A DNA stretch of 64,000 bases, taken from the NCBI GenBank assembly GCA_019689635.1, contig JADGHB010000009.1, forward strand, positions 2,053 to 66,052, read 5' to 3'. The DNA comes from Nevskia sp. (GTDB taxonomy: Bacteria > Pseudomonadota > Gammaproteobacteria > Nevskiales > Nevskiaceae). Below are positions 40,131 through 44,687 of this stretch, piece after piece. Position numbers and translations under genes: made by a program. The notes under the pieces were generated by a model that made no database searches, had not been told where the DNA came from, and saw nothing but the letters and a program-made list of their open reading frames with translations. Every line of letters begins with the position of its first letter. Position 1 is the first letter of the stretch.

Positions 40131-40206
40131 TGGCGCTCCTACCGGGATTCGAACCCGGGTTTAAGCCTTGAGAGGGCTCCGTCCTAGGCCTCTAGACGAT
40201 AGGAGC
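40131..40206 (-). tRNA. tRNA-Glu(CTC)
   Basis: GCTCCTA acceptor stem, D-arm GTCTAGAGGCCTAGGAC, loop CTCTCAA, GGTTCGAATCC, CCA end. Confidence 0.97.
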
Positions 40207-41594: not shown

Positions 41595-42066
41595 GGCCTA
41601 CGTCGCGCTGGGCGCCAACCTCGGCGATCCGCCGACCGCGTTACGCACGGCGCTCCAGGCGCTGGCGCAAACGCCCGGCGTTCGCGCGCTCGAGGTTTCG
41701 AGTTTCTATCGCAGCGCTCCCGTCGGTCCCGAAGGCCAGCCCGACTACTGCAACGCGGTCTGCGCCTTCGAGACCGAGCTCACCCCCGAAGCCCTGCTCG
41801 AACGCCTGCAGGCGCTCGAGGCGGCGGCCGGACGCCAGCGCGGCGTGCGCTGGGGGCCGCGCACGCTCGATCTCGATCTGCTGCACGTGGAAGGCGAGAC
41901 CCGCGACACCCCCGCGCTGCAACTGCCGCATCCGCGCCTGCACGAGCGGGCCTTCGTGCTGGTGCCGCTGGCCGAGCTCGCGCCGCAGCTTGCCATTCCC
42001 GGGCGGGGGCGCGTGGCGGCGCTGGCGGCGGCGATCGACCGCTCGACCGTGCGGCGCTGGACTTAA
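41575..42066 (+). CDS. folK: 2-amino-4-hydroxy-6-hydroxymethyldihydropteridine diphosphokinase
   Basis: [31 protein letters not shown] and [16 protein letters not shown] motifs. Confidence 0.97.
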
Positions 42067-42113
42067 GGGACAGAAGTTTTTTCTCGGCGCTGGCTGCGCA
42101 GGAAGACCGACGG

Positions 42114-42142
42114 TTGGCGATCGCGCGGCCGGCGATTACACT
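42114..42142 (+). promoter_or_regulatory. Sigma70-like promoter of panB
   Basis: TTGGCG (42114-42119), N17, TACACT (42137-42142). Confidence 0.7.
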
Positions 42143-42151
42143 GCCCCCGGC

Positions 42152-42223
42152 GGGCGCATGCCTCAGTGGGCCGCCCTGATTTCGAATCGCCGGTGCCGGG
42201 CGTATGTCTCGTTGGGCCGCCCG
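42152..42223 (+). promoter_or_regulatory. Tandem bulged-hairpin leader RNA upstream of panB
   Basis: GGGCG-CAT-GCCT-CAGT-GGGC-CGCCC (42152-42176) and GGGCG-TAT-GTCT-CGTT-GGGC-CGCCC (42198-42222). Confidence 0.75.
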
Positions 42224-42311
42224 CCGCCATCCACCGGGAATTTCCCATGCAAGCGACTGAGTATCCGTGCGGGCCGTGGTGTCCTGGCCTCCCGTCGGCC
42301 GGAGGCCGCCG

Positions 42312-43226
42312 GTGAGCGCGCCGGCGCCGAGCGTGCAGCTCGCCGAGCTGCGGCGCATGCGCGAGGCCGGCGAGAAGATCGCCTGTCTGACCTGCTACGA
42401 CGCGAGCTTCGCGCTGCTGGAGGATCGTGCCGGCGTGGATCTGGTCCTGATCGGCGACTCCCTGGGCATGGTCATCCACGGCGGGACCACGACCACGCCG
42501 GTCACCGTGGAGCACATCGTCTATCACAGCCGTTGCGTGGCGCCGCACCTCAAGCGCGCCTTCCTCGTCGCCGACCTGCCGTTTTTGTCCTTCGCCACGC
42601 GCGAGCGCGCGCTGGACGCCGCGCAGCGGGTGATGCAGCAAGGCGGGGCCAAAATGGTCAAACTCGAAGGCGGACGCGAACAGGCCGACATCGTCGAATA
42701 CCTCGCGGTGCGCGGCGTGCCGGTGTGCGCGCATCTCGGTCTGCAGCCGCAGCTCATCCACAAGATGGGCGCTTTCAAGGTGCAGGGCCGCGACGAGGCC
42801 GCCGCCGAGGCCATGCTGCACGACGCGCAAGTCCTGCAGGACGCCGGCGCCGATCTGCTGCTGCTGGAGTGCATCCCCGCCGCGCTGGGCCGGCGCATCG
42901 CCGAACGTTCGCGTGTGCCGGTGATCGGCATCGGGGCGGGGCCGGACGTGGACGGGCAGATCCTGGTGCTGCACGACATGCTGGGCATTTCCCCGCTCGT
43001 GACGCTGGGCCGCAAGCCACGCTTCGTGAAAAACTTCATGGAGGGCGCGCCGGACATCGAGTCGGCCATCCGCGCCTATGTGCAGGCGGTGAAGCGCAAA
43101 GCCTATCCCACCGCGGAGCACTGCTTCGAAACGCAGACGGCGCCGGCCCTCGCCGGCGTCAAGACGGAGGCCAAGGCCAGCGCGGCTGTGCAAGGCCGAG
43201 CGCGGCTTCCCGCTTCGGATTCCTGA
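42312..43226 (+). CDS. panB: 3-methyl-2-oxobutanoate hydroxymethyltransferase
   Basis: EKIACLTCYDAS, LIGDSLGM, VADLPF, KLEGG and AHLGLQPQ motifs. GTG 42312 with GGAGG RBS at 42301-42305. Confidence 0.97.
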   Translation: MSAPAPSVQLAELRRMREAGEKIACLTCYDASFALLEDRAGVDLVLIGDSLGMVIHGGTTTTPVTVEHIVYHSRCVAPHLKRAFLVADLPFLSFATRERALDAAQRVMQQGGAKMVKLEGGREQADIVEYLAVRGVPVCAHLGLQPQLIHKMGAFKVQGRDEAAAEAMLHDAQVLQDAGADLLLLECIPAALGRRIAERSRVPVIGIGAGPDVDGQILVLHDMLGISPLVTLGRKPRFVKNFMEGAPDIESAIRAYVQAVKRKAYPTAEHCFETQTAPALAGVKTEAKASAAVQGRARLPASDS

Positions 43227-43245
43227 TTTCCGGGACGCCTTACGC

Positions 43246-44097
43246 ATGCGCACCGTCCGATCGGTCGGCGAACTGCACGCCGCGCTCGCCGCATGGCGCG
43301 CCGCCCGCGAGCCGGTGGCGCTGGTGCCGACCATGGGCAATCTGCACGAAGGTCATCTCGCCTTGGTGCGTCGCGCCCGCGAACTCGCCGCGCACGTCGT
43401 GGTCAGCGTCTTCGTCAATCCCTTGCAGTTCGGGCCGAGCGAGGACTACGCGCGCTATCCGCGCACCCTGGACGCCGACGCGCGCTTGCTGGAAGGCGAG
43501 GGCGTCGAGCTGCTGTGGGCGCCCGCGGTGGAGGACGTCTATCCGGGCGGATACCCGCCGGCGACCACGGTGCGCCTCGCCGGGGCGCTGGCCGAGCAGC
43601 TCGAGGGCGCGCACCGCCCCGGTCACTTCGAGGGCGTGGCGACGGTGGTCAGCATCCTGTTCAACCGCGTGCGGCCGGAGCTGGCGGTGTTCGGCGAGAA
43701 GGACTGGCAGCAGCTCGCCGTGATCCGCCGCATGGTGACCGATCTCGGTTGGGACGTGCGCATCGTCGGCGTGCCGACCTGCCGCGCCGCCGACGGCCTG
43801 GCGCTGTCCTCGCGCAATCAATATCTGTCGGACGAGGAACGTGCGCGCGCGCCGGCGCTCCACGCGGCGCTGCAGGCGATCGCCGCGCAACTGCGCGCCG
43901 GGCACCGCGACTTCGACACGCTGTGTGCGCAACAACGCGCCCGGCTGGAAGCGCGGGGGTTTCGTCCCCAATATCTGGAAGTGCGCTCGCCCGATCTGTC
44001 GCCGCCGCAGGCGAACGCGCGGGAATTCGTGGTGCTGGCCGCCGCTTATCTCGGCACCACGCGGCTCATCGACAACCTGCCGGTGCGCCTCGAGTAA
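43246..44097 (+). CDS. panC: Pantoate--beta-alanine ligase
   Basis: VPTMGNLHEGH, FVNPLQF, RPGHF.GV, GEKD.QQL and LALSSRN motifs. Confidence 0.97.
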   Translation: MRTVRSVGELHAALAAWRAAREPVALVPTMGNLHEGHLALVRRARELAAHVVVSVFVNPLQFGPSEDYARYPRTLDADARLLEGEGVELLWAPAVEDVYPGGYPPATTVRLAGALAEQLEGAHRPGHFEGVATVVSILFNRVRPELAVFGEKDWQQLAVIRRMVTDLGWDVRIVGVPTCRAADGLALSSRNQYLSDEERARAPALHAALQAIAAQLRAGHRDFDTLCAQQRARLEARGFRPQYLEVRSPDLSPPQANAREFVVLAAAYLGTTRLIDNLPVRLE

Positions 44098-44143
44098 GCG
44101 CGCGCCGTTCGTCGGGTTTCGCGGGCGGAACCGGAACGAACGC

Positions 44144-44172
44144 TTGGCGGAGACGGATCGCGGGGTTACACT
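44144..44172 (+). promoter_or_regulatory. Sigma70-like promoter of panD
   Basis: TTGGCG (44144-44149), N17, TACACT (44167-44172); both hexamers are identical to the panB promoter. Confidence 0.7.
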
Positions 44173-44207
44173 TCGGTGACGCCGCCGTGAGCGAAATCCA
44201 CGGCCAC

Positions 44208-44281
44208 GGGCGCATGCCTTAGGGGGCCGCCCTCGTAGTCAAAACCTCGATGCCGGGTGCATGTCTTGGTGGGCCGCCCGG
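44208..44281 (+). promoter_or_regulatory. Tandem bulged-hairpin leader RNA upstream of panD
   Basis: GGGCG-CAT-GCCT-TAGG-GGGC-CGCCC (44208-44232) and GGGTG-CAT-GTCT-TGGT-GGGC-CGCCC (44255-44279). Confidence 0.75.
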
Positions 44282-44306
44282 GGTCGCCAGTCGAAGGCAT
44301 TTCACC

Positions 44307-44687
44307 ATGCAACTGACGATGCTCAAGTGCAAGCTGCACCGCGCGCGCGTGACCCACGCCGAACTCGATTACGAGGGTTCCTGCGCGATCGACGGCCGTC
44401 TGCTCGATCTCGCCGGTATCCAGGAGTACGAGCAGATCCAGATCTACAACGTCGGCAACGGCGAACGCTTCACCACCTACGCCATCCGCGCCGAAAACGG
44501 CAGCGGCGTGATCTCGGTCAACGGCGCGGCCGCGCACAAGGCGCGCGTCGGCGACCGCGTGATCATCTGCAGCTACTGCACGCTGGATGCGCGCGAAGCC
44601 CGCAACCACAAGCCCAAGCTGGTCTATCTGGACGAGGCCAACCGCGTCATCCGGACCGCCAACGCCATTCCCGTTCAGGCCGCCTGA
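44307..44687 (+). CDS. panD: Aspartate 1-decarboxylase
   Basis: [17 protein letters not shown] cleavage site, [10 protein letters not shown] and NGAAAH motifs. Confidence 0.97.

Follow-up and report, generated by a model that had tools for sequence, protein, structure and literature searches.

A tandem-hairpin leader RNA before panD and panB in the Nevskiales

The window analysed here is a stretch of 64,000 nucleotides (nt) from Nevskia sp. (assembly GCA_019689635.1, contig JADGHB010000009.1, positions 2,053 to 66,052 of the forward strand), in which Pfam gives the gene order pcnB, folK, panB, panC, panD, pgi. Two leaders in this cluster, one ahead of panB and one ahead of panD, each carry a tandem pair of small bulged hairpins, termed P1 and P2. 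The pair is a cis-regulatory leader RNA that is conserved, exclusive to panD and panB and restricted to the order Nevskiales, and the tandem hairpins are a structure of the sense-strand RNA.

Occurrence of the tandem hairpins

The pattern GGGYGYATGYCT-N4-GGGCCGCCC has four exact matches in the window, all on the + strand, at 42152-42176, 42198-42222, 44208-44232 and 44255-44279, as against an expectation of 0.08 in shuffled sequence, and none of 100 shuffles reached four copies. The start-to-start spacing is 46 nt in the panB pair and 47 nt in the panD pair, and allowing up to three mismatches added no further match to the 25-nt pattern within the window. A preliminary description of this DNA had listed four such copies at these positions and spacings and had noticed no others in the window, and in all of this it was correct. 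It had also placed the pairs before panB and panD; both genes are confirmed by Pfam, but the first pair directly precedes an upstream open reading frame (uORF) of 22 codons and not panB itself. When folded alone, each of the four 25-mers adopts the proposed arrangement: a lower stem of 5 base pairs (bp), a CAU or UAU bulge of 3 nt on the 5' side, an upper stem of 4 bp and a loop of 4 nt, with predicted energies of -8.7 to -12.6 kcal/mol. The upper stem is gone when the reverse complements are folded, which bears out the earlier claim that the G·U pairs can form on the sense strand only.

A pattern search of the whole assembly (2.81 Mb in 101 contigs) found these four copies only, and the same count of four was obtained with a structure-aware regular expression, in which the lower stem was left free, and with a single-hairpin covariance model. 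Four near-identical copies within 2.1 kb might have been taken for a dispersed repetitive extragenic palindrome (REP) or mobile repeat lying near pan genes by chance. That reading is refuted: there are four copies in the genome, all in pan leaders, the good matches in 40 relatives are likewise all at pan loci, and the orthologous position is conserved across genera. An antisense partner RNA was also ruled out, since the pattern search of the genome gave no match on the reverse strand.

A covariance model of the tandem pair (R1) matched in 42 of 61 related genomes, and the model collects the pair in about 100 distinct Nevskiales leaders, with compensatory changes, showing that the hairpins are conserved in orthologous leaders. 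They are carried by 36 of the 37 genomes of the window's own family and by each of the three genomes that were sampled in two more families of this order, and the other five families yielded three weak matches only (E near 0.1 or 0.006). The sole genome of the window's family without the motif, which belongs to the window's genus and is 91% complete (G023), has no detectable panD either, and its pan locus is either absent from the assembly or lost. Of the 53 strong matches, 39 directly precede panD and the other 14 fall between folK and panB. Weak matches in relatives (L057-L064) were rejected, a pan gene never being nearby and the structure being unconvincing. With the single-hairpin model (R3), searched in 40 genomes, all matches of at least 30.8 bits were members of tandem pairs at pan loci, and the best of the rest scored 24.7 bits; from this bimodal distribution it follows that the hairpins never occur singly and that the regulon consists of panD and panB only.

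Beyond the order, a rebuilt model (R2) gave two weak matches in 400 genomes sampled across the class, neither of them near pan genes nor with the motif, in a scan that scored only 11 candidates per genome and was of limited sensitivity. An exact-pattern scan of one genome per species (185,579 species) returned true matches from Nevskia, Solimonas, Hydrocarboniphaga, Fontimonas, Sinimarinibacterium, Panacagrimonas, Stenotrophobium, Stagnimonas and Algiphilus and from records labelled Nevskiaceae or Nevskiales. A few further records labelled just Gammaproteobacteria or Pseudomonadota also carry true model matches, and the remaining records are chance pattern matches with no model match. Two contigs labelled Verrucomicrobiia (L109, DATLBT010000137.1) and Rhodospirillales (L144, CAJCJH010000085.1) have a full-scoring element beside panD; L144 was placed in the window's own genus, and both are probably mislabelled or mis-binned contigs of metagenome-assembled genomes. 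The five motif-free sister families (L188-L197) have panC-panD spacers of about 80-200 nt with promoter-like boxes, and the panD leaders there are unlike the tandem-hairpin leader and are conserved within a genus. No Rfam match was found for these spacers, and panD in the sister families may have other, undescribed leaders.

Covariation, strand and conserved nucleotides

Two model-derived alignments, of 49 and 73 distinct sequences, were used to examine the stems, and in both more than 99% of the cells in paired columns are paired. At position 4 of P1 the pair is CG in 51 sequences, UG in 16 and UA in six; at position 4 of P2 it is UA in 30, CG in 27 and UG in 14, with one non-pair, and positions 1 and 2 of P2 alternate among GC, CG and AU. 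The observed covariation score was reached by none of 500 column shuffles, and pairing falls to 40-60% when the register is slid. RNAalifold, applied to 33 diverse panD leaders that had been aligned independently with MAFFT, flanks included, predicted precisely the two bulged hairpins P1 and P2 and no other structure.

The kinds of pair that occur settle the strand. U·G outnumbers C·A by 14 to 1 at position 4 of P2 and by 16 to 0 at position 4 of P1, and each upper stem contains two invariant U·G pairs, which would be C·A on the other strand. The fold is therefore possible on the sense strand only, which argues for RNA and against a DNA operator. In the operator reading the 25-bp units would be tandem transcription-factor sites just downstream of a promoter; a promoter-like -10 box does stand 10-90 bp upstream of them, and their outer part is partly palindromic (GGGYG...CRCCC). 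However, the outer arms covary with many U·G (T·G in DNA) and hardly any C·A, as sense-strand RNA would and a protein-DNA site would not; the palindromy does not extend to the inner part, the reverse complement does not keep the structure, and the uORF arrangement described below points to translation, so that an operator function is very improbable.

The inner part of the hairpin is conserved in a different manner. The upper stem, GYCU/GGGC, is invariant save for U or C at one position and shows no both-sided change in 73 sequences, and together with the bulge YAU and the first and last bases of the loop it is nearly invariant without covariation; the bulge, upper stem and loop ends are probably read by sequence. 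The bulge of P2 is CAU or UAU throughout, one AAU excepted. Among 55 distinct hairpins the rare bulges CAC, UAC and UCU are found in P1 only and always with GCCU, not GUCU, and the deviant P1 bulges thus sit beside the stronger C-G pair in the upper stem. P1 and P2 keep their separate identities across genera, P1 being mostly GGGCG-UAU and P2 mostly GGGUG-CAU with a longer lower stem of 7-11 bp. Their starts are separated by 46-54 nt, most often by 49, and 95 of 99 leaders fall within 46-51 nt; the sequence of the linker is divergent. The loops take the form UNNU with free central bases, and kissing loops between P1 and P2 were ruled out, the central dinucleotides being complementary in two of 99 leaders. 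A reading frame starting at the AUG of the bulge was also ruled out: many copies read AUG-UCU-UAG, hence no such frame is conserved.

Architecture of the two leaders

The features of the locus in the window are as follows, where SD stands for Shine-Dalgarno sequence and P0 for a further hairpin near the 5' end of the leader.

42114-42142, + strand: promoter-like site of the panB leader, TTGGCG (42114-42119), 17-nt spacer, TACACT (42137-42142), read from the sequence
42152-42176, + strand: hairpin P1 of the panB/uORF leader, GGGCG-CAU-GCCU-CAGU-GGGC-CGCCC, by pattern, fold and an R3 score of 40.5 bits
42198-42222, + strand: hairpin P2 of the panB/uORF leader, GGGCG-UAU-GUCU-CGUU-GGGC-CGCCC, by pattern, fold and covariance model
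42247-42315, + strand: uORF of 22 codons (MQATEYPCGPWCPGLPSAGGRR), starting 24 nt after P2, its TGA stop overlapping the GTG of panB (GTGA)
42286-42307, + strand: predicted hairpin within the uORF, in which GGCCUCC (42286-42292) pairs with the panB SD GGAGGCC (42301-42307)
42312-43226, + strand: panB, ketopantoate hydroxymethyltransferase, GTG start, Pfam PF02548 (E = 8e-98)
43246-44097, + strand: panC, pantoate-beta-alanine ligase, Pfam PF02569 (E = 1e-100)
44144-44172, + strand: promoter-like site of the panD leader, TTGGCG (44144-44149), 17-nt spacer, TACACT (44167-44172), read from the sequence
44184-44204, + strand: P0, a predicted 5'-proximal hairpin of variable sequence, GCCGUG-N9-CACGGC
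44208-44232, + strand: hairpin P1 of the panD leader, GGGCG-CAU-GCCU-UAGG-GGGC-CGCCC, by pattern, fold and covariance model
44253-44281, + strand: hairpin P2 of the panD leader, CC-GGGUG-CAU-GUCU-UGGU-GGGC-CGCCC-GG, with a 7-bp lower stem, by pattern, fold and covariance model
44293-44312, + strand: panD translation initiation region, SD GAAGG (44293-44297) and context ACC-AUG-CAA, from the alignment of panD leaders
44307-44687, + strand: panD, aspartate 1-decarboxylase, Pfam PF02261 (E = 1.5e-49)

The start of panB was placed by alignment with relatives (MSA...AELRRMR), and the stem of P2 in the panB leader has one further pair, 42197/42223. A tRNA gene at 40134-40206 on the - strand adjoins the start of pcnB.

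A promoter-like site of the sigma-70 type, TTGnnn-17-TAnAnT, precedes every leader, its -10 box lying 31-41 nt before P1 in most of the 99 examined, and in the window the two pairs are preceded by identical TTGGCG and TACACT hexamers at identical spacing. A strict consensus promoter scan did not call the site at 42114-42142. Most leaders have the hairpin P0 between the -10 box and P1, ending 3-6 nt before P1, with its fold kept and its sequence not, and in 86% of the 99 leaders the 40-nt stretch ahead of P1 folds better than shuffled versions of itself. In the panB leader of the window the promoter-like site ends 9 nt before P1, which leaves no room for P0, and P0 has been lost there. P0 reads GTGR-N6-YCAC in 24 of the 99 leaders (e.g. 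L007, L070, L108, L125), like the CRP/Clp-type palindrome TGTGA-N6-TCACA; in other lineages the hairpin is kept but neither its sequence nor its loop length is shared, and this favours a role as RNA over one as a DNA site.

Downstream of the hairpins no terminator-like site was found, and minimum free energy z-scores for the whole leaders (+0.56 and -0.58) are uninformative at about 70% G+C. In 74 panD leaders the AUG of panD follows P2 by 21-40 nt with a mode of 27, and its context is strongly biased, with C at -1 in 95%, C at -2 in 86%, C at +4 in 96% and A at +5 in 90%. The conserved context GCC-AUG-CA is also present in several hairpin-free sister families. Several other genera (L010, L021, L045, L049-L051, L054-L056) have a gene for a protein of about 205 amino acids between panD and pgi, the sole variable insert at that place; it is absent from the window, contains the motifs HLHP...SGTYY...FESWLRHEV...SFNY and was read by eye as resembling 2-oxoglutarate-Fe(II) oxygenases.

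The panB leader departs from this plan in having the uORF where panD would be. A uORF is present in all 14 Nevskia-type panB leaders and starts 24-28 nt after P2, the position occupied by the panD AUG in panD leaders, and its first codons (MQPTxLQ...) resemble the N-terminus of PanD (MQLTMLKCK), diverging after about nine codons. Its length is 20-38 codons with the frame kept, and the stop overlaps the start of panB (ATGA or GTGA) in 13 of the 14, the fourteenth ending 10 nt inside panB. The panB leader thus appears to be a duplicate of the panD leader, start codon included, and translation of panB-panC would depend on translation of the regulated uORF. In the window the predicted probability of being unpaired is 0.17 at the SD of panB and 0.10 at its start, and a further comparison gave 0.28 for the panB SD against 0.49 for the SD of the uORF. 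In these predicted folds a paired panB SD fits a coupling in which translation of the uORF would unmask it. No sign of codon-specific attenuation was seen in the uORF. It is like known coupled leader ORFs in that its stop overlaps the downstream start and the downstream SD lies inside it and is predicted to be paired; it is unlike the usual ones in that it is a relic of the PanD N-terminus and seems only to relay control of the panD type.

Relation to the pan motif and mode of action

Of the known elements the nearest is the pan motif (RF01749), which comprises bulged hairpins in the panB, panC and panD leaders of Firmicutes, Chloroflexi and delta-proteobacteria and was suggested to be the site of a dimeric protein (Weinberg et al. 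2010, Genome Biol 11:R31, PMC2864571). The preliminary description had characterised this motif accurately and had offered two alternatives, a gammaproteobacterial variant of it or a new element. The Nevskiales element resembles the pan motif in having small hairpins with a conserved bulge that contains A, in the usual tandem pair and in its place in panB, panC or panD leaders; it is always paired and 5' of panD or panB (53 of 53 strong matches) and so shares the pan-type location. In other respects the two differ. In the pan hairpin a single A is bulged from each strand, whereas the hairpin of the Nevskiales has one 3-nt 5' bulge, YAU, and a continuous 3' strand, GGGC-CRCCC; the upper stem and loop of pan are variable and covarying in the seed alignment, whereas the upper stem GYCU/GGGC is invariant; and the phylogenetic ranges, three lineages for pan and the Nevskiales for the present element, are different. 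A search of the whole genome with RF01749 (gathering threshold 36.2 bits) gave nothing at E up to 10, the Bacillus subtilis control being detected. Cmscan with Rfam 15 at E up to 10 found nothing in window positions 42000-44400 (2.4 kb) or 44195-44315 (121 nt), and at gathering thresholds Rfam 15 finds three tRNAs only in the window. The failure of RF01749, the absence of the two bulged A residues and the invariance of the upper stem all speak against the variant, and what remains of the two alternatives, a new element analogous to pan and not a member of its family, is favoured by these comparisons. No description of the element was found in the literature searched, nor a later paper naming the effector of pan.

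Guanidine-II (mini-ykkC) and NAD+-I (nadA) RNAs are also tandem small hairpins in 5' leaders, first suspected to be protein sites and later found to bind small molecules. The leaders gave no Rfam match to either, and their gene context also differs. The guanidine-II hairpins have conserved ACGR tetraloops that kiss, whereas the Nevskiales element has free, non-complementary loop centres and conserves the bulge and upper stem. Protein operators offer a second group of parallels: the thrS operator of Escherichia coli has two hairpins bound by dimeric ThrRS, the coat-protein hairpins of MS2 and PP7 have a bulged A, and the sites of CsrA may be added. Such operators consist of one or more bulged stem-loops at or upstream of the ribosome-binding site, where a dimeric protein competes with the 30S subunit. 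A stem, bulge, short stem and loop with conserved ends is the usual make-up of protein-bound hairpins such as those of thrS, MS2 and PP7 and the iron-responsive element. The Nevskiales element is like the thrS, MS2 and PP7 type in its tight spacing and in lacking an RNA expression platform; it differs from protein operators in that its sequence is unrelated and its hairpins stop some 27 nt short of the AUG, leaving it uncovered.

With regard to the step that is controlled, the absence of a terminator, the constrained distance from P2 to the AUG, the geometry of the uORF and the predicted pairing of the panB SD point to translation rather than termination, and control would accordingly be exerted at translation initiation. 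Each leader would be transcribed from its own promoter and have the layout P0, then P1 and P2, then a ribosome-binding site with the AUG about 27 nt after P2. P1 and P2 would be paired recognition sites for one trans-acting factor, a view suggested by their occurrence in pairs only, their tight spacing, the lack of pairing with an SD or platform and the operator-like architecture, all of which argue for a factor that touches both hairpins. That factor may be an RNA-binding protein in dimeric or multimeric form, perhaps one of the pathway's own enzymes, which when bound beside the ribosome-binding site would hinder loading of 30S and so exert feedback control on the synthesis of pantothenate and coenzyme A (CoA). 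Repression is the presumed direction. panD would be controlled directly and panB-panC indirectly through the uORF, the panB leader being in this scheme an old copy of the panD leader whose panD codons now start a uORF that ends across the start of panB. A dimeric protein acting sterically is the explanation that we tentatively prefer to a small-molecule riboswitch, short though it falls of an even chance; the grounds are that no RNA expression platform was seen, that the spacing is tight and that the hairpins are shaped like operators. No conserved expression platform pairing with the hairpins was found, and pairing of the strands of P1 and P2 or of the linker with the SD gave no signal above shuffled controls, save for a small gain with the 5' strands.

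Several considerations weigh against a protein of this kind. The conserved neighbourhood pcnB-folK-panB-panC-panD-pgi yielded no candidate regulator gene, and in the 40 genomes searched with R3 no hairpin stands before any other gene as the mark of a regulator that controls itself; a riboswitch would need no regulator gene. The mini-ykkC and nadA hairpins were themselves once deemed protein sites and proved to be riboswitches. The upper stem lacks covariation, its pairing being inferred from energy alone, and, invariant as it is and with two U·G pairs next to the bulge, it could be a ligand pocket. Finally, the direction of regulation is a guess, and coupling through the uORF is clear in the Nevskia-type clade only, the Solimonas-type panB leaders being ambiguous, with weak start codons, in-frame extensions or no uORF.

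A tandem riboswitch, in which the hairpins singly or together bind a small molecule of the pathway directly (beta-alanine, pantoate, pantothenate, 4'-phosphopantetheine, CoA or acyl-CoA) and the ligand-stabilised fold changes the access of 30S to the start about 27 nt downstream, is consequently a possibility of real substance, if not our first choice. It would account for a conserved, covarying structure found solely before the two entry steps of one cofactor pathway, for some 15 invariant nucleotides around the bulge and the U·G-rich upper stem, and for a synteny block with no regulator gene and with no hairpins elsewhere, and it has the guanidine-II and NAD+-I tandem hairpins as precedents. 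When P1 and P2 are forced to form, the predicted accessibility rises modestly, from 0.34 to 0.49 for the SD and from 0.45 to 0.56 for the AUG. The 5' strand of P2, UGCAUG, is also complementary to CAUGCA at the start codon, so that a 6-bp pairing is possible, and G at +5 co-occurs with C at position 4 of P2 in five of five sequences. These five come from a single clade, however, and the GCC-AUG-CA context is equally present in sister families that lack the hairpins. A further difficulty is that 25 nt is very small for an aptamer with a ligand the size of pantothenate or CoA; moreover, loops that are complementary in so few leaders do not allow a kissing dimer of the guanidine-II type, and no conserved alternative pairing of the SD was found. 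The Geobacter pan RNA was probed with pantothenate, CoA and beta-alanine at 1 mM, and no hit was reported (Weinberg et al. 2010, PMC2864571 supplement). That the hairpins are a new class of riboswitch for a pantothenate/CoA metabolite, independent of pan and convergent with it in tandem design, is a somewhat doubtful extension, in which the new class and pan may respond to one common ligand, other than those probed so far, by way of two cooperating sites. In a bolder variant the bulged CAU or UAU would base-pair with the AUG start codon as an anticodon does, this pairing being part of the switch. To our knowledge pantothenate/CoA is the major cofactor pathway for which a validated riboswitch is still lacking.

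It is improbable that the hairpins are a constitutive structural element that senses nothing and serves to stabilise or process the mRNA, to protect its 5' end, to provide an RNase site that uncouples panD from panBC or to fix a rate of translation. They are GC-rich and stable, the panD copy sits between panC and panD, where processing could matter, and P0 resembles a generic 5' stabiliser. Such an element would have no need to keep some 15 nucleotides and the bulge invariant, or to hold to a strict tandem and a fixed spacing, throughout the order; confinement to panD and panB would be unexpected, as would copying together with a start codon to panB, and it is P0 that shows the merely structural pattern here, its fold being kept and its sequence free.

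The description of the pan motif in 2010 raised the question of how bacteria sense pantothenate or CoA at the level of RNA. The Nevskiales element is a second motif, unrelated in sequence, that shares its gene context and tandem architecture with pan and belongs to another phylum-level lineage, and its independent occurrence suggests that the tandem design is functionally required, be it as two cooperating sites or for a dimeric partner. It provides an independent RNA for pull-down or ligand screening, is absent from Rfam 15 and is overlooked by current annotation of Nevskiales genomes. The panB leader is in effect a natural experiment in which control seems to have been passed on by copying the leader and start codon and coupling a uORF to panB, and this would place the regulated step at translation initiation, at a fixed distance from the second hairpin.

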